Assembly: GCA_044892505.1 (NCBI GenBank)
Contig: CM097883.1
Coordinates: 415,958,001 to 416,022,000, forward strand
Direction: 5' to 3'
DNA from: Schmidtea nova
Taxonomy: Eukaryota
DNA: 64,000 nt
The translations under genes were made by a program, and so were the position numbers. Positions 1-27,358 of this stretch are shown here, piece after piece. A model generated the notes under the pieces. It worked only from the letters and a program-made list of their open reading frames with translations. It had not been told where the DNA came from and did not search any database. Every line of letters starts with the position of its first letter. The first letter of the stretch is position 1.

Positions 1-1007
1 AGCCGTAGTTAGCGTAATTTCATCCTCATAAAGCATGTTCATTCTTCAGTATGACGACTGACACCAGCCAACAGCGAGAACTGGACAAGGCCTGGAGACT
101 CCACCGAGCGTTGGAAAAAGAGCTGAACCAGGAAAAAGCGTTACGTGCTAAAGCTGAGGCACAAATTCAGTATTTACGAACCAGTTGGTTCGCCCCAGCT
201 CGTATGAAAGAACAGATGAGCCGAACGGAGAGAGCTCAAAAGACCGCGGATGATTATTGCACGGAATGGGAAGCAACAAAGATTGAGTTACGCCGATGTC
301 TCCATTCCGTGACGACTTCTTTCATCGATTCTGATTTACGGTCACAAATTCGACCCATCACCTACCAGAAATGGGTAGGAGAACAGAAAATGGCCTGTTT
401 GGTCAGTACCGACACTGACGGTCTCGAAGCGACAACGACTCAAAGTCCGACGGAACCTACAGTTATACCGATTCACGTCGAAAAAATAAAAAAGAGAAAA
501 CGAATCGGCTCCAAGCGTCGACGCCAAAGGAAACTGTTCTCCCAGCCGCTACAAGCGCAAGTGAACAATATGGCAGAAATGTCTGAAGCAGAATGGCTAT
601 CAGAGATATTTCCTCCCGAAGGGATCTTCGCTGAATTTTTAGTTAAATAAAAGTATTGAATGTTACCAGATTCCGGTGTTCTAATTTTTGTTCTTCTATT
701 TTCTTTATTGTTGCGTAATTAATAATAAGTAAATTTTACAACCACACGTTCACATAACAAATAAAATAGCGTAAGTCCTTCTACGGCAGCGTGAACCCGT
801 AAACATAAATGGGGAGTAGTCCTAGCAATAATGCTCACCTGCCCATCATTGTTTAACCACCTTGCGCATCACCAACTTGGTTATCAAGGGAAATAAACAA
901 AGGCGCTCGAGTGAGATTTCGCGGAAATTTATGCATGATCATGGACGGGGAATCCCTAGCCATCGTTAGAATTTTCATCTAACCCCTCCATGAGCCCAGC
1001 ATAAATT
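1..1007 (+). repeat. Distal part of putative 5' LTR (U3 end, R, U5)
   Basis: AATAAA at 646-651 followed by a T/GT-rich downstream element (~680-715); ends ...CCCAGCA(1001) just before the PBS. No second copy is in the window to confirm it. Confidence 0.55.
51..650 (+). CDS. Hypothetical 199-aa protein in the putative LTR; N-terminal coiled coil, basic NLS-like KIKKRKRIGSKRRRQRK
   Basis: Open ORF preceded by acceptor-like TTCATTCTTCAG|T|ATG; its stop overlaps the AATAAA. No homology recognised. Confidence 0.5.
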   Translation: MTTDTSQQRELDKAWRLHRALEKELNQEKALRAKAEAQIQYLRTSWFAPARMKEQMSRTERAQKTADDYCTEWEATKIELRRCLHSVTTSFIDSDLRSQIRPITYQKWVGEQKMACLVSTDTDGLEATTTQSPTEPTVIPIHVEKIKKRKRIGSKRRRQRKLFSQPLQAQVNNMAEMSEAEWLSEIFPPEGIFAEFLVK

Positions 1008-1025
1008 TGGGGGCTCAGCCGGGAT
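1008..1025 (+). promoter_or_regulatory. Primer-binding site complementary to tRNA-Pro
   Basis: TGGGGGCTCAGCCGGGAT matches the canonical tRNA-Pro PBS TGGGGGCTCGTCCGGGAT at 16/18 positions. Confidence 0.75.
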
Positions 1026-1405: not shown

Positions 1406-1867
1406 ATGGAGGAAAAGCTGAAGGAAATTGAGGAATTTTTCAACAAGGAAAACGAGACATTAGGAATAATTTGCAAGAAAATAACCCGATTGAGAGAATC
1501 CGAATTTCAGGAACCCACAACACAGACCGAGGAAACAGACGAATTAATAAAGATCATAGAGAAAACAAGTAACATCGACATAAATACTCGTTACAAATGG
1601 TATAAAGCGCGACTAGAAGATGCTGATCTGAACATTAGGTGCCGACAAATAGAACAACGATTAACCCCAACATATAATCGATGGATGGCGCAAGGGGTAA
1701 AAGCAGCGAAAAAATACCGACAGTGTTATATATGTGAGGACAGCGAAATACAAATTATGTTTTTACCTTGCGGACATTTTCGTTTTTGTAAGATTTGTGC
1801 AAACCAGTGCGACCGATGTCCTATGTGCAACTTTACTGTGAATGAAAAAATTGTGGTTTATTTATAA
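1406..1867 (+). CDS. IAP/XIAP-type C-terminal RING finger protein (C3HC4 E3 ligase), no BIR domain
   Basis: CYICEDSEIQIMFLPCGHFRFCKICANQCDRCPMCNFTVNEKIVVYL closely follows the IAP RING pattern at the extreme C-terminus. The ORF is intact and intronless. Confidence 0.85.
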   Translation: MEEKLKEIEEFFNKENETLGIICKKITRLRESEFQEPTTQTEETDELIKIIEKTSNIDINTRYKWYKARLEDADLNIRCRQIEQRLTPTYNRWMAQGVKAAKKYRQCYICEDSEIQIMFLPCGHFRFCKICANQCDRCPMCNFTVNEKIVVYL

Positions 1868-3126: not shown

Positions 3127-4963
3127 TACACAAAACAAACCAATCAACCAAGCAAGAAGAATCAGAATACGATAATATATAAGATAAGAAAATTGATAAT
3201 CTAAAGGAAATCCCGCTGAGAACAGGAACAATTAGTGTTGTAATAAAACCACCCAAAAAAAAAGACGTCAGTAATATCAACAAAAAAGACCCAAATAGTA
3301 TTGTAACAGAACCAACAGAAAAGAAGAAAGTCGGCAAGGATAGCAACAAAAAAGAACCAAAAGGGAGTAAAGCGAGGAAGATAATAATAGAAAAGTCGAT
3401 TATCGAAAACGATAAATTATCAGTAACAAGCAACAGTTCAAGCAACAAAGAAAACCAAACAGAACCCAAGAAAAACCAAACAAGTGAAATAGAAATCGAC
3501 GAAACCAACAAAGATTATATCGAAGTAGAACAAGAAGTAGAAATTGACGACATCGATAACGATAGTAAAGCATCAGAGAACGAGCCAATAACAGAGAACG
3601 ATCTAAATCTAAGTGAAACCGAAAACGAACATAACAACGAACTAGAAACAAGAGGAAACGAAAGTAAAACAACTCAAGACAGCGGAATCGAAATGAGCGA
3701 ACCAAGAGAAGAGATAAAAGATAAATTTCCGGAGAACCGTTTAATGGAGATGCGAGCAAATTGGAGACTTTTCTAAAGGAATTTGTCATATTCGTAGAAG
3801 TATGCAAATGGAAACCCGAAACGACAGTAAGCAGAATTCAATTATATTTAAAGAATAGCGCATTGAAGCGAAAAATGGATCCAATTCACCTACAGATTGG
3901 CAAGAAATAAAGGATTTTTTCCAACAAACCTTTGGAATAAACAGAGTTCTAAATGAGGCATTCACAGAATACTCAATGAGAAAACAAAAGATAAACGAAT
4001 CAAATGCAGTATATGCGAGTGAACTGAAAAAGTTAGCAAAGTTGACTTTTAATCAAAACAGCCCAATAAGCGATGAGTTAATGGCAGCCATCTTCATAGG
4101 AGGATTAAGAAGACCAGACATAAGAGCACAATTTGGATGTCAAGGGTGCAAAACCATAGATCAAGCGTTAGAAACAGCGAATAGATTCGAATTACATATG
4201 ATAGGAAGTGAGGGCAGAATTTACTTAGCCATGGACACAACGCAAAACGAACAAGAAGTAAATCTTAACAATCACATCCCAAATTCGCAACAGTTAAACC
4301 GACCACCACCTCAACGAAGGAATGAAGGGAATAAAGTACAAAACTTCGGAAACCAAAACAATTACAGCAACCAAGGACAAACAAAACATTGTAAAACATG
4401 TGGAAAGTTGGGACACTGGCAACAAGAATGTTATCAGAACTTGAATTGCGGAATATGCGGAGTAAAAGGACACTCAGAGAATAGATGCTACACAATAACC
4501 TGTTTTAATTGTGGACGACCTGGCCACCGATCAAGAAATTGCGGACAAAGAAGCAATCAACGAGGAAATTGGCAGAGTAATTGGAAACCGACAAAATTAT
4601 AGAAATCAACCAAATAATGGAAACCGACAAAATTATGGAAATCATCCACAAAATGGAAACCGACAATATTACGGAAACCAACAAAATAATAATAATAATA
4701 ATCAGAATTAAACCACCACCAAGGAAATACATCTGATGCAAGAAGTCCAAAGATTGACGGAACTTATGAATAAGACAAGAGGAAATCCGCAAACCGGTCA
4801 ACAACAAATCAACATGATGAGAAAAGTAGAAAGCGAAAACGAACGATTGAATCAAGAAAGCCAGGCACGACATGCTCAAGAATGGGCAAGAATACAAAGA
4901 GAGGATGAACAAAAACAGCGGGAAAGAGAACGACAACCGATAATGAAAGTCGAAAAGAAATAG
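3127..4963 (+). pseudogene. gag: Gag: acidic/basic N-terminus, capsid-like domain, three CCHC zinc knuckles, N/Q-rich tail; frameshifted
   Basis: FNGDASKLETFLKEFVIFVEVCKWKPET capsid-like motif at ~3740; CKTCGKLGHWQQEC, CGICGVKGHSENRC and CFNCGRPGHRSRNC in ORF 3976-4602. Confidence 0.9.
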
Positions 4964-5016
4964 TAAAAGAAGAGAAAGAAGCAGAAAAATAAGTAGAGAA
5001 GAAAGTCGAAAAAGAA

Positions 5017-7400
5017 GTGAATCAAGAAGAGGAAAGGAAAATTTGGAAAAGAGGAATGATGGTAACCATGCCAAACAATCATGTGTTCCGATTCCAATAT
5101 AACGCCAAAGAAGAAGTGGGTATATTGTTCAACAAAGTGAACAAGATGATTCTAGGAGTAACAAAACTACCCAGAGAAGCGTTCTTACAAATAGAAGATG
5201 CGCCAGAAGTGAAATTGGAGCAAACTGATATATGGGAAGATAGAGGAGTAACAGAGACGAAAAGAAATGTAATGATCATCAAAGAAGTGAAACCAGAGAG
5301 AATTCCACCACCAGTATATCACGAAACACGGATCAGCCGAATATTCAAAGGGAAAATGATACGAAGACGGTTGAAAGAAATAGACGAGTTGGAGAGGAAA
5401 ATGAGAAAAGTTGAAGTAGTAGATGACAAGAGTGAATCAACACAAGAAACTGTCAAAAGCGAAACGAAATCAAAGGAAAATACACAGAGTGAAACGGACC
5501 AAATAACACATATTAATATGTTAAGAAACTCCACAAGAGAATTTTCAGATGAGGAAGGTAACAGCGACGTCAGTAGTTTAGCAGGAGATTTACTAAACGA
5601 ACCCGAAAACGAAAACAAAGGTATAAAAGTAGTAAAGACGTCAGAACCCATTCAAATAAAGGTAGATGAAATTCAGAAATTATTAGATAACGCATTGGAA
5701 GTGATGTATAACACAGAATTAATTGACAAGAAACGATATCGAAAGTTTATGAGGGCAGTACTACGAATGAATTACAAAGAATGGTTACAAGACCGAGAAG
5801 TAGAAATGCTAAATCGATACGTGGGAAAACTAATAGAAGAACCACTCCACGAATATATAATCTTAATGGAGATAAAAGACTGTTCACCAAGGATCTGGAT
5901 CAAAACTCCACTCAAGGATGATATTTACCAATGAGAAGACAGACTGGGGAGTTCGTATAAAAACAAATTCATCTATTCACAGAATGGACTAGTGAAGAGA
6001 GGGATGCACATGGTAAAAACAGGCATATGGCCAGGAGAAGTAACAACATTATCAATATGCGATAATAAGAAAGAAGAAAACTTACAAGAAGTGGCAAAGG
6101 AAGCGAACACGTGTTTCGAGATGAGGATAAAACCACAGTTAGATGACGAGAAAGAGTGGAGTTTACAAGGAAACTTAAATTCTATGATAGAACAAATCAT
6201 CCAACAAATCGGAAAACATAGAAAGGAGTTAATGAGAAACGAATACGAAAAGTTGAAACAATGTATCGAATGCATACGCGACACAAGTCATACGAGAATG
6301 TCACAGATCAAATATGGTAAATTAATCGCAAAAATGGGAAAGGCAATGTTCAGACAAGGAAAAATAACGGATCTGAAAATCTCAGTGAAATAACCTAATG
6401 AAGAAACAAAAGAAATTGAGGTAATAGCAGATTGTACTATAGAAGAATTAGTAAATGTCATCAATGAGACACTACTGCAAAGAGAACCAGAAGACGAGTG
6501 GGAAGACGACATAATCATGAAATACAACGAACATGCATTATTGGATCACGATGAAAGACGACTTTATAAAATTGGTATATGGGATAATTACCAAACAATC
6601 CACGTTATCAGAATGGATGATACAGCAAGAGAAACTGCAAAAGACGAGGAAAGAAGACAAGAACGACAAAAAGAAGTCATGCACAAATTAAGGCAAATAG
6701 TAGAAATTTATCGGAATTGGCAGATAAAGCTAGAATGGGAAAAAGTATTAGGAGATTTCAATCTCAACAGACGACGACTAACACCAGTAGGAAAACAATG
6801 GAATGATCGAGGAAAATGTTGGGAACCAAAAGAAGGTGAATATGAAGAGGGATATAAAATAGGAATGGAAGACGACTACAAACCAGAAACGAAAAGAGTT
6901 TGCATGGTGACAAGGAAAATTATGCCAACAGATCAAGATGGACCAGAAACAGAAGCTATATGGTTAGAAAGGGAAAAACAAAAAACGGAAGAATTTGTCG
7001 AAATATTAAAGAGCAATGCGCACGGTAAGAGACGATTAGTAAAAGGTCTCGCAGAATTTTTTATAGCAAACGGAGAAGACATAACATGCTTGCGCAAAGT
7101 AGCAAAAGCAATCGCAGAATAAAAAAGAGTTAACGAGTGGTGCCCAGAGCAATTAGATCACGTAATTAGGAAATGGAGAAATCAAGAATTCTCTCAAGAA
7201 TCACCACAGAAAGTACATTTAAGAATAATATATCCGAACAAGGACAAGGAAGTGTTTTGGGTAGGAATAACAGAGAAAATTCGAGATATTAAAGGAAAAT
7301 TGAGATATGAACTACCATTCCATTTACAACACCAAGGACGATCATTAGATATTGGTATGGAAATCGGGATAACGCCAGCACAACTATATTTCATGAATAC
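5017..7400 (+). pseudogene. Polyprotein segment with three ubiquitin-like domains (~5056-5280, ~6373-6612, ~7213-7395)
   Basis: ORFs 5017, 5992, 6517 and 7252 share one frame separated by single stops. KISVK*PNEETKEIEVIADCTIEELVNVI..YNEHALLDHDERRLYKIGIWDNYQTIHVI and VHLRIIYPNKDKEVFWVGITEKIRDIKGKL..LQHQGRSLDIG follow the ubiquitin pattern; the first domain is weaker. Confidence 0.55.
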
Positions 7401-8039
7401 CTGGACAGTGGAAGCGACAGCGGGTCAACCATTGAAACGTAAAGAGGAAAACAGGAAACCACACGGAAGTACAAGTACGCAGAGCCCGATGAAATCAGTA
7501 TTAACGCCAGGAACAAGTTCAAGACGACCCGAGACATACCGAGGGAAACCAGAGAAAGGACTCCACCACAACCATACGATGTGGAAGAAATATTAACGGA
7601 TAGCGACGACATGATAGAGGAGTTAACCGAATTAACAAAGGAAAAAGACGATAACATTTTCGAAAGAATACAAGAACTACCTAGAACAATAAAAGTAATC
7701 AATACCGGAAATGAAGTCGAACAGGAAATAATAATAGAAGAAGTAAACGACTTATCAGAAGAAGAAACAAGAAGAACAAACGTAGAAAATATACACTTAA
7801 CAAAAGAAATGGAAAGGTGGTTAGAAGAAAGAGCTAACGAACCAACAGACGCCACGGAAGAAACCGGACGAGCAACAAGACTTGTGGAAACAGATACAGA
7901 TAGACGACCCCGTGAGAGACCCAAGACAGATCCAGCGAATATAGTTATAAGAAACAAAGATGAAAAGAGGCAAGATCAATGGGAGTTATGCTTAAAGAAA
8001 TTAAATAAAATCGCGGAAATAAAAGAAAAAGAGACAACA

Positions 8040-8450
8040 CAAATGTGTCAAGGTGAGGAATGGATATCAAAAATAATAATGGAAATATTGGCGATAATTG
8101 ATCCAGAATTAAAAATATATTGGCGAATAAACGAAATAAGTGAAAGGGCAAAGTCATTACATAGCGCAATCGCACGAATTTTACCAGAACTCATAAAAGA
8201 AAATACAAAATCAAACCACTTAGACTGGCAAAGAACCACTACGGTAATAAAGAAACTGACAAAAGGGGCGGAGACGGATAACAAATATTTAATAGCCATT
8301 GCGTACACTATTTACAATCTATTGACACTGAGTAGAGGTCGACCAAAACCTATTGCATTAGAAAGACATATAAAGAATACAGCCAAAATTATAACAAGAG
8401 AAATAGAACCGTACGTCATTAGCAAAGGAGGATGGGAAACATTTACCAAA
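8040..8450 (+). CDS. Bcl-2-like domain within ORF 7581-8849
   Basis: BH1-like NHLDWQRTTTVIKKL and BH2-like ITREIEPYVISKGGWETF (cf. Bcl-2 LNRHLHTWIQDNGGWDAF). Confidence 0.7.
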
Positions 8451-8569
8451 ACCAATCAAAAGAAAACTCAAGCCAAGAATATGAAAAAGAAATTCGAAGA
8501 AATATTGGGAGAGTTGGAAAAAGTACAGTCAGGAACAGGAAACGCAAAATCGTCATTGAATCTGAATTC

Positions 8570-10441
8570 AATCATAATGATGATGTTAATATGGACGATT
8601 AGCACCGACGGAGCAACAGCGTTTGAAGTATTCGATTGTGATCAAATGGCATTAGGTGAGAAATATTCATTACGAGGAACAGAACAATGTAAAGACGCCA
8701 CGCCAACAGAATTAAAAACATTACAAAAGAGACAATTGTACCACGTATACCAGGAAGCGGAACTGATAAGAACAATGGTTAGAGAATGCAAAATTTATAA
8801 ACAAGATTCGCTTTTTATTGTGGACGAGGACACTACTCTGCATTTGTGATGCCAGGAACAGAAAGAGAATCAGTAATGCTACAAGGAGAAGACTGCGAAA
8901 AATTGTTCAGATACGGTGAAATAGAAACAAGAGATAAGATAAAATTAAAAGGGATAGTTGGAGCGATAATACAACAAACGTTATATGTAGCAGGAGCGAT
9001 CACATGAGGAGAAGGTTATTGTCAAGGATCAACTTAGCCTATATTTGGAGTACCAGCAACAAACTTAGTGGTAATTGACACCTATACAGTAGAACTTAAA
9101 ACATACGAAGCGTTTTTCGATCCAATAACGGGAGAAATAAAGACCCTGCCAACGTGTAAAATTGAAGCTAGTACCTGCCAAACTGGTATGTCAACTCTAA
9201 CATAACAGACACGAGGAAATGAATGTCAACTACAATTTTTAAAGGAAGCAGAATTCGATGAAATTCAAGGGAAAACATTCCAAGAAGAAGAGGAGAACGA
9301 AGTAGCGAGAGGAAAGATTCTCAAAGAAACAGTACAAGAGAGAAGGATCGAAGCACGAACACAGGAAAAGCAAATCAAGATGAGAAATACCCCAACGGTA
9401 CTAATCACCTCAGATGCGGATGTAGGGATGAGATTCGTAAAAGGGAAAACAGCCTTAAAATGCGGAGTAGCCATGTTGGAAACCAACTACCCCGTTATTT
9501 TTGTATCAAGACAAGCGGTACCTAATGCAAAACGTCAAGTAAACACGAACGATGTTAAACTACACCTCTACGTGAACAATAAAATGGACTTCCTATGTCA
9601 CAGAGGACAAGCCTCATTACAAAAAATATATTACGACCTAATCAACAACGATTGTATATTAAATAAAGAAATACTGAAAACAAAATTAGCAGTAGCTATC
9701 ACAAACCCGGACAGTGCAATGCCACTATTACCATTGAGAGAAGGTCACTTTGGAAGAGTAGTAGGCGAAGTTATGTACGTATATATATGCAAAAAGACAA
9801 ACGCAAATGTTGCAACTGCGACGAAATTACAACCAGGACAATGAACAAACGAATTAGAAATAGAATATAAAGGAAAAGTGAGATATGTACAGCCAGTAAC
9901 AAGAATCATAAATCCAGTAAGCTTCGAGCCAAATCGTTTCAATTGTAGTAACGCATATGGACCACTATATCAAAAGCCAGATGGTAATTGGGTTATGTTC
10001 CATTCAAGAACAGAGGTACCAGCACCTAGAGAGTTCGAATTAATGCAATTATCGAAAGGACGGAAATCCAAAGATGTAGATGTAAACAATATGGGATTTT
10101 ACAGTGCAAAAGATCTAGAAGCGGCAAGACAAAATATATTATTTCCAGCAAGAAGGGAAGCCGTATTATCCAGCATCGTAACCATAACAGGAGGAACAAA
10201 TTACCAAGGTGGACCAAATTATGAGCTACTATTATCACCGACTCATTTTAAGAAAGCAACCGAAAATATGATAAAAGCGATGTGGGGAAGGTTTTTGATT
10301 TTTGGACAAATGATGGCAGGAATACTTGGCGTCATATTAATACTACAAATAATACGAGTAATAATAAAGCAAATGCTCGCGTGTTTTGACATCTACAAAA
10401 GAGAAAAGAAAGTCAACTGGAAATTAGTGGTAAGATTCTAA
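8570..10441 (+). pseudogene. env: Env-like class III fusion glycoprotein of chuvirus/herpes gB type, with one frameshift (~8815) and several nonsense codons
   Basis: Signal IIMMMLIWTISTDGATA|FEVFDC; then VRECKI, YCGRGHYSAFV, GEGYCQG, GHFGRVVGEVMYVYICKK, VRYVQPVTRII, GFYSAKDLEAARQNILFPARREAV and TM WGRFLIFGQMMAGILGVILIL. The motif order matches chuvirus-type glycoproteins. Confidence 0.8.
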
Positions 10442-10591
10442 GTAGTAGGACGAAAATTTAAAAAGATAATGAATGATGAGCAAGCAGGAAAACAGCTTAA
10501 GAAAGAAAGAAAAAGACTGTGGGAAAGAGTAAAAGGATAAAGAACCCAAGACGATTCAAGTGACGACGATGACGACTACAAAGGAGGTCAA

Positions 10592-12960
10592 ATGTATAAG
10601 AACCAAGCACCACAATACATTGAAAAGAATCCAGTTGACGCATGGAAATGTTATGCACCTCCACCAACAATGTATCAAGAATCACCACAAGGAGGAAGAA
10701 CTAATACGATGCAAATGATGCCAATGACGAATATATACCCTATGATAACGGAAGACTATAAAATGAGAAGATGCAGAAGCATGGATCCGCAAGGAGACGC
10801 ACATACCATTGCCGTAATGTCATCAAACACAGGTCCAGTATTAACCACAACCATAGAAATTAACGGAAGGGAAATTGAAGCAATGATCAACACAGGAGCA
10901 AATATTTCCGCATTAGACATTAAATGGATACCACAAGAACAAAGACAAGACATCGAAAGGACGAATGTTCACGTAATCGCATATAGCAAAGAAATCGTAG
11001 AAGTCGAAGGGAGATGGTGGGTAAAAATACGACATTTAAATACAGAAATCGACACCTACGTGGCAGTCATACCAGTGTTAAGCGTACCTTGCATTATTGG
11101 AACAGATCTGATGCCAGCCTTATTTAAAGAAATAGTAATTGATCTCGGAACAATGAGATTAAAAGACCGCACAGGACAAATATGCGCAATAGAAGCAAAA
11201 GTGACCAGTTCAAAGCAAATAATTATACCAGCAAGAAAGGAGAAAATATGTTACGTGAAAATAGACCCTACCATCAAAGGGGATATGATTTTTGAACCAA
11301 GTAAAAGATTCGAGAAAAGGAAGGCGTTGCCAATGGCAAGAGGATTAGTCAACATAAACGATAATTGAGAAATCCCAATAAACGTAATAAACTTCGATGA
11401 AGATAAAATAATCTACGAGAACGAAAGATTAGGTAAGTTAACCCCAATGATGAATATCGAACTACCAATAGAAGGGGAAGAAAAAGGTAAAGAACCCTCC
11501 TGGAATATTGATAGTGAAATATTAAACGAGGATCAAAAGAAACAGTAAGAAAAACTTCTGATAGAATACAAGGATATATTTGCAGCATCCGATTTAGATC
11601 TAGGTACATGCGATGTCACGCTACATACAATATCATTGACAGACGAAACACCAATCGCGTTAAGGCCATACAAATTAGCGGAGGCACAAAAAGCAGTAGC
11701 GGAAGCAGAGGTGCAGAAAATGTTAGATGCAGAGGTAATCGAACCAAGTTGTTCACCCTGGCAATTTCCAGTGGTAATGGTAAAGAAGAAAGACGGAACA
11801 CAGAGATTTTGCATTGATTACCGGAGATTGAATGCAGTAACAAAACGAAACACTTACCCATTACCAGACATTAATGAAATGCTATTAACATTACAGGGAG
11901 CAGCCTATTTTACATCGCTAGAATTGAAAAGCGGATATTGGCAAATAAAAATGAAGGAGGAAGACAAAGAGAAAACTGCCTTTACCATTGGTAGAGACTT
12001 GTACCAATTTCGTAAAATGCCATTCGGATTAACAAACGCACCAGCATCATTTTAGAGATGCATGAATTTCGTAACCCATGGAATAAAACAGTGCATGGTC
12101 TACATCGATGATTTATTAATTTACTCCGGTACGCTCGAACAACACATACCAGATATTCGAGACGTGTTCGTCAGACTCAGACAATGGAAGTTGAAACTCA
12201 AGCCATCCAAATGCGATTGGGCGAAAGAAAAAGTAACATTTCTGGGACATATAGTGTCAGCAAAAGGAAAAGAACCAGACCCTAGAAATATAGACAAAGA
12301 AAAAGAATGCCCAATACCAAAGACAATAACACAGATACAAGAATTTCTCGGATTATGCGGATATTAAAGGAAATTTATAAAGGATTATGCGGGAATCGCA
12401 AAACCCATACAGGAGCTAGTTAAGAAAGATGTATCATTCATATGGGGAAACGAACAGCAAACAGCCTTTGAGACGTTGAGGGATAAACTGATAACTGCAC
12501 CCATAATAGTTCACCCGGACTTCAAGAAGCCATTCTTACTTGCAACAGATGCAAGCGGATATGCAGCGGGAGCAGTGTTAGGACAATACGACAACGAAGG
12601 AAAAGAACGAGTAATCGGATACTATAGCCGAACATTTAAGAAACATGAGAAAAATTACTCGGTAACAGAACGAGAAGCGCTAGCAATCATACTAGCAATA
12701 AAACATTTTAAATATTTATTATGGGGACACATCATCTGTATAACGACAGACCACCAACCACTTGTATGGTTAGGACAACATAAGGAAACATCCAGTAGGT
12801 TAATGAGATGGGCAATGCAATTACAAGAGTACTCACCGAATATAAAATTCTAATCAGGACGAGCAAATGCCAATGCAGATTGTATGTCAAGATTGACATT
12901 TCCGGAATTAACCGATCCTGAAGTACATACGCAAAAGGAACGTACAAAGGAAATGACATA
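10592..12960 (+). pseudogene. pol: pol: aspartic protease (catalytic D>N), reverse transcriptase, RNase H; Ty3/Gypsy type
   Basis: EAMINTGANISAL; RFCIDYRRLNAVT, LKSGYWQI, MPFGLTNAPASF, MVYIDDLLI; LATDASGYAAGAVL, YSVTEREALA, TTDHQPL, RLMRWAMQLQ. One frame with nonsense codons. Confidence 0.95.
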
Positions 12961-13888
12961 GTAATCATAAAAAGAAAAATGCCAGTAGCATTTTTATTAC
13001 CAAAAGACGGAATATTGCCAATACATAGAGCATTACGAACAGACAAGGAGAAGAAGGTAATTAAAATCGCCCGACTAATGCAAGACTGCTGAAGTGATAT
13101 GAACATGATAGACGAGAAAGGAGATACCTTTATGGTGTTTGCAGCAAGGGCTAAAACGAAAACAAAGGTGTTAGAGGAATTACATAAAGCAGGTGCAGGA
13201 CTTATAGAAAAAACGGATAAAGATAACTCAATCCTAGATGTAACATTATTAACACATAACAGGGAAATGGTCAACTTCATTAAAACAATCACAAATCAGG
13301 AAGAAATAGATTATCTAACTAAAACTGTCAAAAAAACTCAGCATACTAACAATGATGCACAACGTCGAGCTAACAGAAGCAATACTTAATTGGATAAACC
13401 CAGATACCAACAAACCAGCGTTCAGAATTAACGAGTTTATAGAACAGAACCAAAACTGGTGTATGAGAAGTGCATTAATAACTTATAAGTGGCCAGAGAT
13501 ATTAAAAATTTTTATGGAAAGAAAGGATCTAAGAATCACCAACAACCCGAAAGAAGAGAAATATACAGGCAAATGGAAAGAATTGATGAGGACATATATA
13601 AACAACTGGATCAAAGCCAAGAAGGAAATTTTGGAATACAAATCCGCCAATAAAGCTATACCTGAGCAGATAGAAACACAGGAGTTTAAAGCAACTAACC
13701 TAACAACATTAGCTTACGCAAAATTGATAGAAGAAATCAATGTCGAGGATGACATTTTTAACGAACCAAGGGGAGGTGACACTACAGACAGCGACGACGT
13801 TAACAACTCGGAAAACTCAGAAGACCACGAACCACCCGATAAAGAGGACAATGAAGGGAAAGACAAGAAGAGACGACCAAGAAAATAA
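12960..13888 (+). pseudogene. Unknown domain at the position where integrase normally lies
   Basis: Coding-like frames 13099-13389 and 13352-13888 continue from RNase H; no HHCC, DDE or GPY/F motif. Confidence 0.5.
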
Positions 13889-13939
13889 AAACGAAACCAA
13901 AAGAACAGGTTATAAACAAACTGTAAACCAATTTTTCAG

Positions 13940-15885
13940 ACCAGAGCTACTATTATTAACAGTAATTATAACCCTAATTAGTCCAAGTCAAGGAATGATA
14001 TGTAGAGAAAGGGCGTTAATACGGATAGCAAACGCAAAAGGAATCGAACGAGTCTGTTGGTCAAAAAAGGACAAAATCTCTGGTCAAAATAACCCGATGG
14101 ATTGCAGAATCTCAATATCCGAACAAGAAACCATAGAGATCGAAGACCTAGATATGGAAACCTGGTATAGAATATGCACCGTCAGAAAACCAAAGGATCC
14201 TAAGTCACATAAGATAATCGCATGTAAAACATACCAAACACCTAAAGTGACCATGACCAGACACCAGTCACCCGAAGGAGACTACGTCGTTGAAAATTGT
14301 AGAGGAACAGAAGCACCAGAAACGAAAGACAAAAAATCACAAGCAACAGATAAACAAACAACGACAGATAGACGGAATACAACGGACAAGCCCGAAACAA
14401 GAATAGCCACAAATCAAACCGAAAGAGTGACTTACCAAATGGAAGGATTATGTTTAGCACTCATACTAGTAATGATAAAACGATTGGAGGAAGGAATAGA
14501 GATTGACACTATAGAAATGATGGATGTAGAAGATACCTGAAATACCAGCGTAAAATGTTGGGCGAAGAACAATGAGGAAATCGGGATAAACAAAGTAGGA
14601 AAAAGTCAAAAGCTAGCCACGGATAAAATAACAAAAATATCCAAAATAAAAGCGGACAGGACGTATAAACTATGCCTGCTGGAAAAGGAAAAGAACAAGA
14701 AAGGTACAATAAATTGTAAAACATTCCAGCCAGGAGAAGTACTTAAGTTCAAAAGGAGAACAAGACGGAGAAATAAACAAACCAAGCAAAAGATAACTAT
14801 AATGCTAAAAATAACAGGAATAGAACCGGAGGTGAAAGGAGTATGCTGGAGGAATTACGAGAAGAAAACAAATAAAAGAATGACACCCCAATGCCAAACA
14901 AGCACAGGAACAACTACGATACAAATAAAAGGTTTTGAAAGCAAACAAACCTATGAAATATGCCTAGTAAGGAAAAGTGATCAGATAACCATAAACGACC
15001 TAGAATGCGGGATATACACAACTTCATCCGGAACAAGAACTAGAAAGATAACACTAAAAAATAAAAGAAGACAACGAAACAAAGGAAAACCGAAGCATAC
15101 CACTACTTTTAAACACGAGAAACAACCAACAAACCAAGAAAGTAAAACAAAACCCGAGAACGACCTCAGCAACTCTTATATTATGGAAAATAGATAATAA
15201 AACATTAGAAATATGTTGGTCAATAACCCAGAAACAAACAGGCAGGCTACCACGATATTGCAGAAAAACAAAGGAAGAAATTAAGATCGAAAACCTACAA
15301 TTTAATAGGGAATACGAAATATGTGCAATAGAGAAAACGGACTCATTAAGAAATCAACAAGAGAGATGCGAAACGTACTATACACCAGCAAACGCGACAC
15401 CGAAAGGAATAATAAGGAAGCTTGAATTTAAGGAATTAAGCCAAACAACAGAACAAATGGATGCCGAAGAAATAATAATAAACCCTCAAGCAAAATGGAC
15501 ACCCGAAGAAGTAATCAAAGAAGTCAAAAGAAAACAACGGAAACGAGAACAGCTGATGAAGAAACTAAAGGGACAATACGGACTAATGGTTAATCGAAGA
15601 AAATTGATACAAATAGACGTTAACAAACAAATCAGGGAAGTAATTGGCTTAGGAATACTAACAGCAAATATACCAATAATAATCGCATTATTAGTAATAT
15701 GGATGTGTGAGGTAAGTAAAAAGAAACAGACAGCCCAATGGCCAAATATAAATATTACAAACTATAAAATTGAATTACCAGAAGAAATACAGAAAGAATT
15801 TCAAAGAAGGACGAAAGGTAAGGAATTTTGGAGACAAATAGAAGATGAGGAGAGATACGACGAAAAGTTAGTAACGATTGTATAG
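13940..15885 (+). pseudogene. Type I membrane protein: signal peptide, four Cys-containing FN3-like repeats, TM helix, short tail
   Basis: LLLLTVIITLISPSQG signal; four repeats CW...(I/L)xxLxxxxxY(R/K/E)(I/L)C...CxxYxT at ~14050, 14550, 14838 and 15208, like FLRT/LRFN-type FN3; TM VIGLGILTANIPIIIALLVIWMC at ~15641-15709. Confidence 0.6.
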
Positions 15886-15893
15886 GGGGCGGA
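15884..15893 (+). promoter_or_regulatory. Polypurine-tract-like sequence
   Basis: AGGGGGCGGA overlaps the last polyprotein stop and is followed by TG (15897) and TGTAAAT (15901). Confidence 0.5.
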
Positions 15894-16010
15894 TTATGAC
15901 TGTAAATAATAGTGTAAATAACAAAGCATTACCGAAATAGTATGGGTATCGATATTATAAAATGTGTAAAAAGAGAAAAATAGAAATTAATTGATGTATA
16001 TAATTTAGAA

Positions 16011-16310
16011 ATGAATGAACAAGACGAAACAACCGAAATAACTATGGCAATGAGATGGAAAGCACAATTTCACTTATTAGTACGAACAATTAACTCACTA
16101 CAAAATCAATTAGCGGAAAGACAAAATTTACTATCTGAGAGTTATAATAACTGCTTCGAACAATTACAGAGGATAGAGAAACAACAAAGATTGATAACAG
16201 AACTCACAAGAGAAAATCAAACGATAAGCAACATAAATCAAAGACAAGCAGTAGAAATAAATCATTTAACAAGAGGAGAGAGAGAGAGGAATCAGAAGAA
16301 GGATGGATGA
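16011..16310 (+). CDS. Hypothetical 99-aa coiled-coil protein
   Basis: Intact ORF, heptad-like composition, preceded by TTTAG|AAATG. Confidence 0.5.
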   Translation: MNEQDETTEITMAMRWKAQFHLLVRTINSLQNQLAERQNLLSESYNNCFEQLQRIEKQQRLITELTRENQTISNINQRQAVEINHLTRGERERNQKKDG

Positions 16311-16460
16311 GTTGGGTAATAAATAGATTGCATAATGATCTAGAACCGGATTCAACAAGCGAGCCATAGATAAACAAAGCGGAAAAATTGTAAATATGTA
16401 AAAATAAAAACAAGAAAATCAAAAATAAACAACAAATCGAATGTATATATTATTGTAGAA

Positions 16461-19006
16461 ATGGATAAAGAAGAACGAGCAGTCGAAATTTTGAGAGCTG
16501 AGAACAGGAAATGGAGCAAGAGGCTCACCTGCGGAAATTGTAACAACTTACTACGAAAACCTAGACAAACTATATGTGGATGTAGAATATGTACTAAATG
16601 TGTACAAGAATTGGGTGTAAAAAGAATAACAGCATGCCCAGAATACAAAGAAGGAAGAATAGTGTTAGACGAAACCAGACCGGATAGAGCAACGCAGAGA
16701 GATTATGAGCACAATAACTGAATGTGTAAACACACCTTGTATATGGCAAGGACAAATAAGCGATTTGGAAAATCACATGGAAAATTGCGAAGAAAAGAGA
16801 ACCGAATGCGAGAAGTGTCAACAGACAATAATTCTAAAGAATAAAGAGCAACACAAGGACGAATGCAAGGAAGAAGAAATTTCATGCGAATACTGCAAAA
16901 CTCGAGAAAAAAGGAGGAAATCGAAGAGGAACACCTGAATATAACCGAGGAGAAAGTATGAGGACAATATGTAAGCATATGTCCAAACAAATGTGAAATA
17001 ACAGAAGAAATAAAGTTACACGAACACTGGAAAGTATGTACTGAAAGACCAAGAGAATGTCCATATAACAAACATGGATGCAAGGAGAAAAGGACGCGAC
17101 AAACAATGAAACAACACTTGGAAGAAGCATCGCTAACGCATGTTGAAATGACAAACGAAACTACAAAAGAAACGGATCAGACAATTCAAAAATTGCAAAG
17201 AGAAATAGAGTCACACAAGATAATGGTAAGTAGACAGTTATGTGGAGCATGAGTCATCGCAGAACAAAGGAAATGACGTCACCCCCCGGGGGGGTTAGGA
17301 ATTTTTTTATGACTCATCGATGACGTCATCGATGACTCATCGGCATGACTCATCGATGACGTCATCGATGACACATTTCAAATTTGAATTTTATGACGTC
17401 ATCGATGACTCATTTCAAATTCAAATTTTGAATTTCCAAAGGTCAAATAAGGTCAAACCTTCAAACAAGGGTATCATTCGAAAGGTCTTTGAGAGGTGCA
17501 CACAATGGTCATACCCTCGATGGTCTATGGTGTGTCCTTAACCTTCAAAGGGTCAAAAACCTTCAGATTTTTCAAACCTTGTGTGTAATACATCATTCGA
17601 AAGGTAATACCGATGTGCACACAATGGTCATACCTTCGAAGGTGTATGGTGTGTGCTCAACCTTCAAGGGGTCAAAATCCTTCAAATATTTTTAAACATT
17701 ACAAGTTATATATCAAACAAAAGGTAATTGAGATTTGAGTATGATGGTCAACCCTCGAAGGTGGGTGGTCGACCTTGGACCCTTTAAGGGTATGACCATT
17801 GTGTGCACCCTTCAATTACCTTTTGTTTGATACATATATTATATAGTTTTTAAAATTTTGAGTCTTGGACCCTTCAAGGGTCGACCACCCACCTTCGAGG
17901 GTTGACCATCATACTCAAATCTCAATTACCTTTTGTTTGATATATAACTTGTAATGTTTAAAAATATTTGAAGGATTTTGACCCCTTGAAGGTTGAGCAC
18001 ACACCATACACCTTCGAAGGTATGACCATTGTGTGCACATCGGTATTACCTTTCGAATGATGTATTACACACAAGGTTTGAAAAATCTGAAGGTTTTTGA
18101 CCCTTTGAAGGTTAAGGACACACCATAGACCATCGAGGGTATGACCATTGTGTGCACCTCTCAAAGACCTTTCGAATGATACCCTTGTTTGAAGGTTTGA
18201 CCTTATTTGACCTTTGGAAATTCAAATTCAAAATTTGAATTTGAAATGAGTCATCGATGACGTCATAAAATTCAAATTTGAAATGAGTCATCGATGACGT
18301 CATCGATGAGTCATAAAAAATGTCCTAACCCCCGAGGGGGGGTGACGTCATTTCCTTTGTTCTGCGATGACTCATGCTCCACATAACTGTCTACTATGGT
18401 AAACCTACTATTAGAAACAAGAGAACAGTTCGAATTAACACGAGAAAATATGGAGAAAAAGATAAAAGCCATCGAAGAATTGGCCAAAGGAATGAAAATA
18501 CAGTACAACAAAATCACACAGGATACCGAGGAAAAACTATCAGTCGCACCATATGTATGGAAGGTAACGGATTTCAGAGACAAATTAGCGGACGCACGAA
18601 ATACGACGAAAACAACAGTAATAAGCACACCATTCTATCTATGGAAAAACGGCTGTAAAATAAGAATGAAAGTTTACCCAAATGGAGACGGAAGAGGACG
18701 AGGAACACATGTGTCGATATTTTTCGCATTATGTAAGGGAGAATACGACGATTTAATAGAATGGCCCCTGGAAGTAGGAGTCATCGTAAGAATCAGAAGT
18801 ATAAGAAAAATGTGGAAAAATTCTTTGAGACAAGTAAGCATGCGAGTACGAGCGAAAAACCAACAACAGAATGTGGATTAGCAGCTGGAGAACCAATGTT
18901 TATAATTCAAGAAAATATATTGGAACTACTATATGCAGACACCTTGTATATAGAAATAGAAAGAAAAAGAACGGACGAGAAAGCAGCAAAGGGATGGTGG
19001 ACGTAA
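16461..19006 (+). pseudogene. TRAF-family protein (RING, TRAF zinc fingers, coiled coil, MATH), intronless, frameshifted and split by an insertion
   Basis: CGNCNNLLRKPRQTICGCRICTKC RING; CVNTPCIWQGQISDLENHMENC and CPYNKHGC zinc fingers; YVWKVTDF..STPFY..GCKIRMKVYPNGDGRGRGTHVSIFFALCKGEYDDLIEWP MATH. Removing 17229-18395 plus one TSD rejoins ESHKI-MV-NLLL in frame. Confidence 0.92.
17229..18395. mobile_element. Non-autonomous Polinton/Maverick-type element made almost entirely of two ~520-545-bp TIRs
   Basis: Termini AGTAGACAG...CTGTCTACT; 6-bp TSD ATGGTA (17223-17228 and 18396-18401); arms ~17229-17774 and ~17879-18395. Confidence 0.75.
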
Positions 19007-19119
19007 TGAAATAGATAACCGTGTAAACAGTATGTATAGTCAAATACCCAAAAATATAAAATAAACAAAAATATAACTGAAAAAAATAAACTGATTAAAA
19101 TTTATCTGTAATTATAGAA

Positions 19120-20181
19120 ATGGGAAATATAGAAGTATGTTTACATGAAATCCCCATACACCAAGATGAAGCTATTAGTAAACACTTGGAACAAATTGAA
19201 ATATGGATCAACGCATATTACCGAAAACATGAGGAGTTTGAGAGACAAGCCGAAGCACTAAAAGAAGCAGAGAAACTAAATCAAAGAAGTCGAGAGAAAA
19301 TAGAAGAAGTATACAAAACATTAAAACAACAAAATGAATATTACAGAGGAATGATGAAAGAACGACGAGAGGAAAGAGATAGACAGCAGATAAAAACCGA
19401 CCACAAGATTCATTCAATTACTGAAGAGGCAAGATACTGCAAAAAAGAGGAGGAAGAATCCTACAAGGAAGCAAGAGAGATAATAGAAAGGACAGCCTAT
19501 AGTGATGATTGGAAGCTATATAAAGAGATCGACGAATTAAAAGAGGAATTAGGACAGAAAATCAGCCAAGAAGTGTCAAATAAAAGATGGAATAAAAAGA
19601 GACAGCAATTTATCTGGGAACAGGCAAAGAAAATTAAAGAACTAACTTATCAAGTACAAAGAATGGGGGAGGAGTTAGCTAACCAAGAACAACTGAAAAA
19701 TATGCTTACCGGAATGTGTAATCACAAAGAGGAAAATATGAAAAGAGACATAAATGGTTACCAAGGAGTGATTACCCAGAAGAAAATAGAATTGAAAAGA
19801 ACCAGAGAAAGACTAGAAGAAGCAAAACAGAGTTATGAAGAAAACATAACCAACTTGACAAAAGAAAACGAGGAACTGAGAAAGAGGTTGACAGAGAAAC
19901 CAATACAGACAAAAGAAACAAGCATTACAGTAGCAGTAACAGAAATGATGAAAGAAGAAGAGAGAAAGACAAAGATAGCAGAATTAGAAAAACAAATAGA
20001 AACACTAACAGAGCAGGCAAACTACCTAGAATATTTATTGGACGAAGAGATTCAGATATCTCATATGTACCGAGACGAAGTTGAAATGTGGAGAAGCACG
20101 GTAGTATGGATGCCACTCCCCATGAACCAAGTGGAACCTCAAGATGAAGGTTTCCACGAACCAAACGAAACCCTAGTGTAA
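19120..20181 (+). CDS. Hypothetical 353-aa coiled-coil protein
   Basis: Long intact E/K/Q-rich ORF preceded by TATAG|AAATG and followed by TGTAAATAAA. Confidence 0.6.
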   Translation: MGNIEVCLHEIPIHQDEAISKHLEQIEIWINAYYRKHEEFERQAEALKEAEKLNQRSREKIEEVYKTLKQQNEYYRGMMKERREERDRQQIKTDHKIHSITEEARYCKKEEEESYKEAREIIERTAYSDDWKLYKEIDELKEELGQKISQEVSNKRWNKKRQQFIWEQAKKIKELTYQVQRMGEELANQEQLKNMLTGMCNHKEENMKRDINGYQGVITQKKIELKRTRERLEEAKQSYEENITNLTKENEELRKRLTEKPIQTKETSITVAVTEMMKEEERKTKIAELEKQIETLTEQANYLEYLLDEEIQISHMYRDEVEMWRSTVVWMPLPMNQVEPQDEGFHEPNETLV

Positions 20182-21514
20182 ATGGAGCGGAAACTAACTG
20201 TAAATAAATGATGTAAAATAAGTGTCAAGCTGTATTGACCTATATGTAAAGAAAGAGATGAGGAAGTTAATAGAAAGAGTTAAAAACAAACGATTTGGTG
20301 TTTTATGATATCAGAAAAGAACTTGTAATCTGTTGTATTCGTGTTTATATTTATTTCCTTGCATTATTTCTGATTATTATTGTAATACATAAGCAATAAT
20401 TGTGAGGTTGTAAGACTTTTTGATGTTAGAAGAAATTAAGAAAGAACTTTAAGAAGAGGAAATTGATGTAGATGAAAAGACAAGTATTCCGATCTATGAA
20501 TATGTTTAAGATGATAAAGAAAATCCAAAAGCTAATCAGGACTTATTTTAATATCAGAAGCTAGCAGGTTTGAACAGAATTGCACTACTATATAAAGATG
20601 CTTACAATGTTCACGATTATTAATTTATCCAGAAATCAGTTGGCATACTTCTGTTATTTTGGTTTCTCAAGTTTATTGCACAATTCTATAGATATCCGTC
20701 TATACAATTTTGTGATTTTATAATTTTATATCAAGTTCTACTCACGAATTATTTTTTAAAAAATGAAATGTCAGATTTGCACTAGCCTTATAAAAATAGC
20801 ATCACTATTGTTGAGGATACATAAATAATAAAATTAAATAATATCATAAATAAAATGATTGGGTGAGAATTGATCGAGTAAACGATATGATGCTCAGGAA
20901 TTCGTAGAAATGAATGAAATCGAACAATAAAGTAAAAGAAGGTCATTGCTAATTAACAACTACAAAATAATTCATTACAAAGATTAGCTTCCGAGACTTT
21001 TTACATAAAAAAATACAAACCTTCCATCAACATTCAATTCGCACAAAAAAATAATGTTAAAAAAAATTTTTAAAAAATTTATTTTCATCCAATAAAATCA
21101 TTATAAAATATAAAATAAATAATTATATAATAATATAACGATTGAAATAGACACTTGATAAAGGCTGTGCCGAAATATTGTGTTATTGTTTAAAAAATTG
21201 TGATTTATAGTTTTATGGAAATTATTAATATTTTTTATTTATTAAAATTTTTAATTAATTACTATTATTTATTTAATATTTATTTATTTCAAATTTATTA
21301 ACTATATAATAAGTAGATAATAAATATAATAAATATTTAATATTAATATTTGTGATGAGTTATGAATGTATATTATCTTGTTGTTATTATTCAATTTTTT
21401 TATCCGTATTTTTATTGTTTTCCATATTTTTATTGATTACCCGGGTTGTTATGTCCGTATTATTGTGTGATTGCGGCAACGTCATGTTACCCCCACTTTT
21501 TATGTTGGCTAATT

Positions 21515-21550
<36 letters not shown>

Positions 21551-22246
21551 CATTTTAAATTAGTATTTTTAATTTGAAATTCGAATTTGGCTTACTATAG
21601 CAAAGGCTATAAATAAGAAATATTGATTATTTAAATAATAATCTAATTAACTTGGCGACAGCTGGAAATTAAAGAAAGTAATAATCGAAGCTAAAAACTA
21701 ATTTAATTCTCTGGATCTACAAGCTATTAAACGTAAAGCGTACGCTGGAACGGAATATCAATCAAAAGACAAGATCTTTTACAAAATTCAAATAAAAAAT
21801 AAAGCTACAAATATAAATTGAAAATTTTACTACAAGATTTTTCTACAACATTGGAATTCATCTCCATTTCCTCTAAATACTTCAACAAACAAAAGTATAG
21901 AAAAATTAACACCTCAACAATAACAACAACAACAACAATCATCCTACAATCCTATCGTAATAAACGATCAACTATCAGAATCTGATAGTAAAGCAAAAAC
22001 TGCACAGACTATTGGCCGATTTGTGATCAGATCTTTTATAAAGTAATTGTATTGTGATTGTTGTTTTAGAGTTTAAATAAGTTAAATAATAAAATTTTTA
22101 TAATAACATATCATTTCGTTTTTACATTTCGTTTTTACCCCGAGTGTCTGCACACGAATACCGCAAGACTCTCTCGGGCGCTTACATTTCTCTTTCATAA
22201 CATATAGATATATTTAATTATAATAAAACGTTATAGTGCAACAAAT

Positions 22247-22258
22247 TGGTGTCAGAAG
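22247..22258 (+). promoter_or_regulatory. Primer-binding site, tRNA-Leu type
   Basis: TGGTGTCAGAAG 3 nt after LTR end ...GTGCAACA(22243); matches the first 12 nt of the tRNA-Leu PBS TGGTGTCAGAAGTGGGAT. Confidence 0.7.
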
Positions 22259-22446
22259 AAAAACAACAAAAAACACAATACACACTCGCCCAATTTTTGT
22301 TCTTTCAATTACTACGCCTTTTAGAATAGCTATAGATAGAGCTCTAAAGGATAGTTGACTCTGTTAGCCGAACACAGTAGGCTATATCCTTTAGTCAATC
22401 TCATTTTTTTCACATTAAAAAAAAGCAACACTACACATAAAGACAA

Positions 22447-23504
22447 ATGGCGTCGAACCAACAAAACCTAACAAACAATCCCCAAACACACAACAACGAA
22501 ACCACACCCAATCAACAAGAGAATACCAGTTATTATTACACCCCTGAAAACCATCACACCATAAATTCGATAATAAACCCCAAGGCAAACATTCCAAATT
22601 ACTTTACAGATGAGAACGGCACACACCAAAAATGGCTAGAGTTCTCAAAACTAACATTGACAATGTCAGGAATTAAATCGACAAAAAGCTTATGTTCCCA
22701 CATAATAGCCGCCGTACCTAGAAATATTCTAAATGAAATCGCAGACTGAATCGACGAAATAGCGAAAAGCGACGACCCATTTAACCTACTATACACAACC
22801 TTATTAAATAGAAATAAGGTGAACAGGAGGGAAGTTTTAGAGTCTTGTCTAAAAGATATACAGCTTGGAAATGACAAACCAAGCGAATTTCTGAGAAATC
22901 TGAAGAGCAAACTAGATTTTTTGCAACCCAAAATCACAAGCGCGGGTCAAAATGATTTCGTGAAAGACCGATTCATGAGGGCAATGCCGCAAGAAATAAG
23001 AAGCATCTTAGTGACAAACGACTGCACAGACCTCGACAAAATTGCCGATATCGCGGACAAAATTAATGACGAAATATTCCCAAAAGTTTGCAGAACATAC
23101 CGAAAACAACACCCGTGGAAAACAAGCAAGAAAACCGTCAAGAACGAGATAACCCCAACAATGATACCAATCTTCTGCTGAACTCGTTAATAAAGAAAGT
23201 TGACGAGGTCTTAACAGAAAACAATAACCTCAGGAATGACTTACAAGAGGCACAAGCGAGAGAAACGAAAAGAAACCAAATCAATCAAAACAACCGTACA
23301 GAACAAAACCCTAACTTTAACCTTTACCAAAATAACCATAACAACCCCACAGAGCAAAAACCAAATTTTAACCGATATAATAACCCAAACAACAGCTACA
23401 TACAAAATGAAAATTGGTGTTATTTTCACAATAGATTTAGAGACAAGGCGTACAAGTGCAACGCACCTTGTACTTTCAACAATAAAAAGCCGGAAAACTT
23501 ATAA
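22447..23504 (+). pseudogene. gag: Gag of a CsRn1-like Gypsy element
   Basis: WLEFSKL..GIKS..LCSHIIAAVP, LGNDKPSEFLRNLK and WCYFHNRFRDKAYKCNAPC; one nonsense codon and one frameshift. Confidence 0.8.
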
Positions 23505-23512
23505 AGTCATCA

Positions 23513-26886: not shown

Positions 26887-26928
<42 letters not shown>

Positions 26929-27358
26929 AATTAGCCAACATAAAAAGGGGATACCATGCCGTTGCCGCTATCACACAATAATACGGATATAACAACCCGG
27001 GTAAACAATGAAAATACGGATAAAACTCGGATAAAACTCGGATAAAACTCATCACAAATATTAATAAATAAATAATATTTGTTTATTTCAAATTTATTAA
27101 CGTTTTTATAACTTTATAATAAGTAGATAATAAATATAATAAATATAATAAAATCATAAATATTTAATATTAATATTAATAAATAAATAATATTTGTTTA
27201 TTTCAAATTTATTAACGTATTTTTACAAAAATTACTATATTTCTTTCAATTTTTTTCATTTCAAATTTATTATTGTTTTTATAACTTTATAATATGTAGA
27301 TAATAAATATAATAAAATAAGAAATAATATACGAAAGGTAGTGAATAAAATTAAATAC

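Follow-up and report, generated by a model that had tools for sequence, protein, structure and literature searches.

Planarian genomes carry giant gypsy-like elements of the Burro/GYPSM1 group, which are described, in the available part of PMC6431247, as ~30 kb long, with one giant polyprotein (4,873 and 5,140 codons in Burro elements) and accessory open reading frames (ORFs); TRAF occurs in them as a domain inside the polyprotein in S. mediterranea and as an upstream ORF in D. tigrina. The present analysis concerns a stretch of 64,000 nucleotides from Schmidtea nova (assembly GCA_044892505.1, contig CM097883.1, positions 415,958,001 to 416,022,000 of the forward strand), referred to as a whole as the window. 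Its first 20,266 bases most probably represent a copy, decayed and truncated at its 3' end, of a ~29-kb Burro-like gypsy retroelement that has 3.0-kb long terminal repeats (LTRs), two conserved genes within the LTR, an internal cassette with TRAF in single dose, and accessory genes that are likely expressed as separately spliced mRNAs.

The element is of Ty3/gypsy type: it has TG...CA direct repeats, a target duplication, the order protease, reverse transcriptase, RNase H, integrase (PR-RT-RH-IN; by Pfam on locus L046), and a tRNA primer-binding site (PBS). The family frame (Pfam; L046) contains a gag CCHC motif, a Monjiviricetes-type fusion glycoprotein, the four pol domains just named and ankyrin repeats, and PF24664 precedes PF00077 in one frame, which places env between gag and protease. 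The polyprotein of the window copy was aligned to those of L005 and L046. In several subfamilies (loci L042, L043, L046, L049, L055, L058) a long segment that is absent from the window copy occurs a second time, at ~33% identity, in the part of the polyprotein that follows the ankyrin repeats.

As far as the accessible text of PMC6431247 goes, the features common to Burro and this element are gag CCHC, PR-RT-RH-IN, ankyrin repeats, and RING and MATH/TRAF cargo, and env lies in both in frame between gag and protease as a relative of mononegavirus-type fusion proteins. The differences from Burro, within the same portion of that source, are that TRAF here forms a gene of its own, full-length and located downstream of pol within a cassette of four genes, and that the giant frame here has ~5,650 codons (frames of at least 5,600 codons are present in 33 of the best 150 copies). 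Burro1/GYPSM1 proper has MATH inside the polyprotein as well as BIR, neither of which was seen here in the frames scanned. The ~30-kb size, the giant polyprotein, and the MATH/TRAF, RING and ankyrin cargo that characterize the Burro group were all found; the lack of any BIR, dUTPase or Bcl-2 match in the frames of the window family speaks against membership. Because these three domains went undetected and TRAF lies downstream, the element is provisionally filed as Burro-like rather than as Burro1, a likeness drawn from descriptions, not sequences. The GAG-ENV-POL gypsy elements of Platyhelminthes, Nematoda and Bryozoa, as covered in the part of PMC13524379 consulted, also have env between gag and pol and a class III-type fusogen; unlike the element here, they are not mentioned there as having a multi-gene accessory cassette or a coding LTR, and they are likened to it by gene order, not by a tree.

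At 7965-8480 the polyprotein region has a helical stretch resembling WI..GGW..F, with no Pfam or PDB match and a model too weak to use (pLDDT 51); a Bcl-2 fold search gave generic helical matches only. A BCL2-like motif of the form WI..GGW..F precedes env in the Burro group. L030:5571-7745, a piece of a different giant element that lies nested within an LTR, has a weak Bcl-2 match (E 2.6e-4) before its fusion glycoprotein.

Ends and gene order of the element

The LTR that opens the window (Table 1) starts with TGTTGGG (TGTTGGGCCC) 1,963 bases before it (L001:8038) and ends with CCCAGCA; in eight other copies the LTR measures 3,023-3,257 bp. Window bases 1-1002 have at least 58 genomic matches (from 40 scored of 1,937 candidates), and the sequence common to them extends ~2 kb further upstream. 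The LTRs of the family are bounded by TG...CA and come with a 4-bp target duplication. One full-length copy (L003-L006, 28.9 kb in total) has at its ends LTRs that are 98.9% identical (Kimura two-parameter distance 0.011), flanked by TTTA/TTTA, another (L061-L035, 29.3 kb) has LTRs that are 99.0-99.2% identical, flanked by CTTT/CTTT, and a tandem with three LTRs (L066-L065-L064) lies between TTTT and TTTT. Solo LTRs show perfect 4-bp duplications at L007, L011, L013 and L017 and one mismatch at L019. (In L016 a 635-bp LTR block is tripled.) Summed over three genomic-contig-like sequencing runs, depth is ~10-fold higher on the LTR bin than on the cassette bins, a ratio that is not a copy number.

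Six nucleotides (1002-1007) separate the LTR end from the PBS. The 3' end of tRNA-Pro(TGG) has 1,113 matches genome-wide; L113 (G000:C1:459.61-459.65 Mb) is a long tandem array of tRNA-Pro(TGG) genes with 308-bp spacing. One full-length element (L061-L035) is embedded in tandemly repeated 937-bp units (see L035:7663-8599), which contain a match to U5 small nuclear RNA. At the other end of the element, the 3' LTR is preceded by a conserved TTTTAGGGGTCCCCG(A/G)GTGA, which folds as a hairpin, and a short purine run lies 11 nt off. The conserved, hairpin-forming GGGGTCCCC tract at L006:3590-3632 stands before the 3' LTR in place of a plain purine tract, and the sequence suggests that plus-strand priming may be unusual.

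The gene order is LTR(ORF166, ORF199) - PBS - RING ORF - gag/env/pol polyprotein - ORF118 - TRAF - ORF353 - ORF190 - LTR. Twelve of 17 other cassette copies run from the polyprotein end through ORF118, TRAF, ORF353 and a ~760-bp tail with a fourth ORF to LTR base 1; one of the remaining five has a diverged LTR at that place and four are truncated (L028 gave no match in the cassette comparison). The same order of ORF353, tail and LTR is found in five of seven further copies, the other two being cut by the locus end. Between the members of each of 12 ORF199 pairs spaced ~26 kb apart there is one TRAF hit, ~4.5 kb before the 3' copy, among the matches listed, a limit that makes the absence of TRAF hits elsewhere weak. 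Homologues of the RING ORF occupy the same position in other copies. A non-autonomous family consisting of the cassette only was considered and rejected, the DNA upstream of ten copies being gag/pol parts or plain truncation.

An earlier, preliminary description of this DNA had placed ORF199, ORF99, TRAF (in pieces), ORF353, an AATAAA and the PBS where they are found here (Table 1), although its ORF99, present as an ORF, is actually the frameshifted form of a 111-118-amino-acid family ORF (ORF118). ORF190, of which the window holds only the beginning, has 185-196 amino acids and two hydrophobic stretches in other copies. The ratio of nonsynonymous to synonymous substitution (dN/dS), calculated from open copies only, which favours low values, is 0.07-0.45 for the cassette genes (ORF118, 0.07-0.16; TRAF, 0.09-0.15; ORF353, 0.07-0.08 where measurable) and 0.06-0.28 for the LTR genes where dS is measurable. 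Judged by these ratios, all six accessory ORFs tested are under purifying selection.

LTR genes and expression of the accessory genes

Complex retroviruses place spliced accessory genes downstream of env or in the LTR itself, such as sag of mouse mammary tumour virus, nef of human immunodeficiency virus and bel/bet of foamy viruses; those that overlap an LTR are single genes in the U3 of LTRs under ~2 kb. The element here, which has no sequence relation to them, differs in being gypsy-type and in having two such genes, probably in R. Each LTR subfamily has one ORF of 159-166 amino acids (ORF166) and one of 196-199 (ORF199), and an element accordingly holds both in two copies, a solo LTR in one; the ORF166 of the window copy is broken and lies upstream of the window. 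Between subfamilies the synonymous sites of the LTR genes are saturated with protein identity still at 34-85% (ORF199, 35-85%), and by this measure the LTR encodes two proteins under purifying selection, without relatives in the databases. Relatives of ORF166 were found neither by Pfam nor by word search, a full HMMER scan of 1.84 billion representatives, or Atlas, and its predicted model is poor (pLDDT 44.5); ORF199 has no Pfam match and no database relative among proteins of similar length. The long coding LTR of the preliminary description therefore stands in part: the LTR is long (3.0 kb) and encodes ORF199 and a second ORF, but ORF99, TRAF and ORF353 are not in it. Neither ORFs inside the LTR, and hence a gypsy-type LTR with two selected genes, nor acceptor-led gaps between genes are mentioned in the section 7 text of PMC6431247; the figures and older Burro papers may show LTR ORFs.

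ORF199 might speculatively be read as an RNA regulator of Rev/Tat type that acts on the hairpins of the LTR. A precedent for the role guessed for it is Cer1, a C. elegans gypsy element that has its own spliced, Rev-like export protein, CERV; the CERV exons are common with gag and not LTR-encoded, unlike ORF199, and the two are likened by guessed role, not by homology (PMC10309623, in the portion available).

The stretch behind the polyprotein stop that was first called a polypurine tract is an intercistronic gap, and the gaps before TRAF and ORF353 are built like it, with gap lengths of 76-125 nt. In the window a YAG lies 0-3 nt upstream, behind a tract of at least 40% T, at five of six accessory ATGs, versus 1 of 272 ATGs of the polyprotein region. 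This T-rich YAG is kept across copies and subfamilies, and in a sister family with ~50% protein identity it lies within 1-7 nt of the accessory ATGs. The gaps also carry the motif UGUAHAUA: six of the seven sense-strand occurrences in 1-20266 are in gaps, and three copies have 5-8 per ~600 nt of gaps versus 0.2-0.4 in shuffles, with 0 on the other strand. The same motif also occupies the loops of hairpins that recur in the LTRs (12 of them, from 6 LTRs, 93.5% paired), in which six of nine pairs show two-sided changes, the hairpins having been chosen by the motif. UGUAHAUA matches the consensus of Pumilio sites and includes the UGUA 3'-end element. A double hairpin with changed stems (L001:8674-8750, LTR bases ~640-715) is conserved across LTR subfamilies; Rfam has no family in the LTRs and none for this double hairpin.

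These arrangements suggest that the accessory genes are likely expressed from spliced subgenomic mRNAs. The predicted transcription start is near LTR base 410, ~30 nt past the TATA box, so that the LTR would consist of a short U3, a ~2.2-kb R with both LTR genes, and a U5 of ~350 bp. The unspliced RNA would serve as genome and as polyprotein message, and access to each accessory gene would come through a splice into the acceptor in front of its ATG, most likely from one short leader in R. Cis-splicing from such a leader is favoured, on the sequence features, over spliced-leader trans-splicing; in rough terms it is given somewhat less than an even chance, with trans-splicing second and all other routes together third. 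Against the splicing reading, ORF190 has no T-rich acceptor in the window subfamily and no strong splice donor is common to all LTR subfamilies; the one donor that aligns, in 11 of 12 LTRs, is a weak GTAA(A/T) located ~110-150 nt past the TATA box.

It is possible, though we think it rather unlikely, that the accessory genes form an operon, in which cleavage and polyadenylation after every gene would divide a polycistronic RNA and spliced-leader trans-splicing would cap the next gene. The short gaps would suit such an operon, with their UGUA repeats, AATAAA-like hexamers and terminal acceptor, as would the T-rich, outron-like and poorly conserved sequence behind the TATA box, where there is no strong common donor. 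Trans-splicing is on record in planarians (PMC10899757), and flatworm operons have gaps of <300 nt and acceptors in common with cis-splicing (PMC12582326; in both cases according to the part of the source at hand). However, AATAAA in the gaps is weakly above chance (its level was reached in 44 of 2,000 shuffles) and absent from the first gap, and internal polyadenylation sites would oppose full-length genomic RNA.

The placement of both LTR genes in R, which is probable, rests on the CCAAT/TATA block at LTR bases ~340-405, which was aligned in 12 of 12 LTRs; ORF199 would then not lie in U3, as had been proposed. It is doubtful that both genes are instead in U3, with transcription starting behind ORF199, in the manner of the U3-encoded genes of retroviruses, and expression coming only from the 3' LTR. 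Such a layout would be the usual one for an LTR, and it would avoid an R of 2.2 kb, which would be very long. Against it, the CCAAT/TATA block is the only conserved one found (the scan covered the LTR up to the region behind ORF199), conservation falls ~30 nt behind this block, and an AATAAA stands directly behind ORF199.

Another way to read the gaps, which we regard as improbable, is that each is a small internal promoter (with GTAAATA as a forkhead-like DNA site) or a place of termination-reinitiation, the AG before the ATG being an effect of start context. The stereotyped gap sequence, repeated four times, and the short stop-to-start distances would be consistent with this. However, variation of the motif as UGUA(A/U/C)AUA and its position in the loops of hairpins that covary argue that it acts as RNA; it is also strand-specific, and the T-rich tracts, in a strand of 19% T, fit acceptors.

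A further, unlikely reading combines several features. The accessory genes would form a host-style operon, with a single polycistronic RNA that spliced-leader trans-splicing resolves, and Pumilio-type UGUAHAUA sites would mark every gap as well as the LTR hairpins. The R of 2.2 kb would turn each LTR, even a solo one, into a self-contained unit of two genes with a Rev-like protein, and well over 100 open TRAF copies would rival the TRAF genes of the host as suppliers of TRAF protein and of TRAF-directed PIWI-interacting RNAs (piRNAs). The literature search, which did not extend to subscription papers or Repbase, found no title on trans-spliced retroelement cassettes or two-gene LTRs. The acceptor-led gaps yield exact, testable predictions for how a 29-kb element expresses seven accessory genes.

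Dose, origin and spread of the TRAF gene

ORF99, TRAF and ORF353 are internal, one dose per element, because 15897-20250 has no counterpart in the preceding 20 kb (self-comparison of these 20 kb plus window 1-30000) and because the 3' LTR starts after ORF353 in full-length copies, ~760 bp past base 20266, with one further ORF in between. The preliminary description had proposed an LTR of >5 kb from ~15897 that would hold ORF99, TRAF, ORF353 and ORF199 in two doses per provirus, a model to which the G-tract and TG directly behind the polyprotein stop (15883-15885, then GGGGCGGATTATGACTG, as described), the location of ORF199 indeed inside the LTR, and some TRAF pairs spaced 21-27 kb apart lend themselves, but which is next to impossible with no cassette copy upstream and the true LTR start located elsewhere, with target duplications. 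The near-identical upstream cassette that the description itself named as a check is missing from the 20 kb before the window. The sequence at its LTR start (15886-15898) is unlike the true one, and when 15850-17230 was matched to 39 other copies, none started at the proposed boundary (query base 48); 35 started upstream of it, at query bases 1-23, and 4 at 93-630. The TRAF pairs checked as candidate LTR pairs turned out to be a 99.7% segmental duplication or tandem elements sharing the middle LTR. (The 19-kb, 99.7% identical tandem duplication at C1:384.4 Mb, L021-L025, may be recent or may be an assembly artefact.)

One count weighs against a single dose: first-look candidates number 2,443 for TRAF and 1,241 for a polyprotein piece, a twofold difference that two doses would also give; for ORF199 there are 9,473. 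The TRAF count is rough and unpartitioned and takes in other TRAFs, and we explain the excess by sister families, host TRAFs and 5'-truncated copies. The corrected map thus has neither a double-dose TRAF nor a >5-kb LTR, and the remaining findings are of interest to workers on transposons and flatworms.

In open copies TRAF has 451-458 amino acids, and its best solved relatives are TRAF3/5/2. One element family carries at least 130 open, intronless, full-length TRAF frames: 130 of the best 150 matches in the genome, all at least 95% identical, lie in stop-free frames of at least 446 codons. A second, sister family (L146, L147, L150, L152) has its own TRAF of 470 amino acids (51% TRAF identity) and four cassette genes in the same order, and its LTR carries an ORF199 homologue, while a third (L148, L151), like Burro1 as described, has its MATH within the polyprotein, in frames that reach 4,706 codons. 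A tree of 43 MATH domains sets ten element-borne rows apart from 19 host-like rows with support of 93/77, below the star of the tool. The element TRAF would, on these comparisons, be an old capture, with a single origin not proven. None of 12 database matches is a flatworm-named TRAF (best, 24-37% identity), and the literature search found no paper linking TRAF-like genes, Schmidtea and transposons. Dozens of host-like TRAF/MATH genes are clustered at the chromosome end G000:C2:405-455 Mb, which includes the window.

The product is predicted to be an E3 ligase/adaptor that would interfere with host TNF/immune and cell-death signalling to the benefit of the element. A planarian TRAF/MATH expansion (PMC6109357) and piRNA cleavage of traf-6 mRNAs (PMC11663942) are on record, and both, as given in the available parts of these sources, may partly reflect such elements.

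State of the window copy

Table 1. Features of the retroelement copy in the window
Feature	Position	Strand	Description
5' LTR, 3' third	1..1001	+	whole LTR 2,964 bp; same ends in full-length copies and solo LTRs
ORF199	51..650	+	predicted coiled-coil N-half, Arg/Lys-rich stretch, acidic-hydrophobic tail; no known family
AATAAA	646..651	+	overlaps ORF199 stop, T-rich tract behind; likely polyadenylation signal that would end R
PBS for tRNA-Pro(TGG)	1008..1025	+	exact 18-nt match to genomic tRNA-Pro 3' end + CCA
Upstream accessory ORF	1406..1867	+	153 amino acids, C-terminal RING finger (PF13920, E 2.6e-11)
Polyprotein region	3183..15885	+	gag (CCHC), class III-type fusion glycoprotein, protease, reverse transcriptase, RNase H; many stops/frameshifts
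First intercistronic gap	15886..16010	+	UGUAHAUA motifs, then T-rich acceptor-like TAG 2 nt before ATG
ORF99	16011..16310	+	frameshifted form of predicted coiled-coil ORF118; internal
TRAF gene	16461..19006	+	RING, zinc fingers, coiled coil, MATH; internal; broken by frameshifts and insert
Insert splitting TRAF	17229..18395		1,167-bp near-perfect palindrome, AGTAG...CTACT ends, 6-bp duplication ATGGTA
ORF353	19120..20181	+	open; predicted coiled-coil protein, no known family; internal
ORF190, first three codons	20258..20266	+	fourth cassette gene; element cut off here

The element ends at 20266, with no tail or 3' LTR after it within the window, and since the 3' LTR is missing, comparison of the two LTRs is no means of dating this copy; identity between its LTR and the L003-L006 LTRs is 86%. 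An integrase/ankyrin stretch that measures 2.5-3.4 kb in other copies is absent near 12926.

Not one of the 17 other copies spanning the site has the insert in TRAF, and it is likewise missing at the joint 17222-18396 in three sequencing runs. Whether it is present in one LTR only, as the preliminary description had asked, is moot, since it splits an internal gene. It is a high-copy non-coding repeat (1,191 candidates) and has AG...CT inverted termini and a 6-bp duplication, as Polinton/Maverick elements do. Two inverted pairs of the insert termini lie ~15 kb apart, and no Polinton gene was found at the three of four loci scanned; it is from its ends that a Polinton ancestry may be suggested.

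Between the RING ORF and gag, the long leader contains short tandem repeats at 2315-2690 (units of 30, 32 and 43 nt). Beyond the element, 21227-27194 holds a decayed small gypsy element (reverse transcriptase at 24483, integrase at 25265), whose two flanking arms of ~1 kb are 87.5% alike and inverted, not direct, and ORFs for a gag zinc knuckle and an aspartyl protease of a further retroelement lie at 31699-33360.

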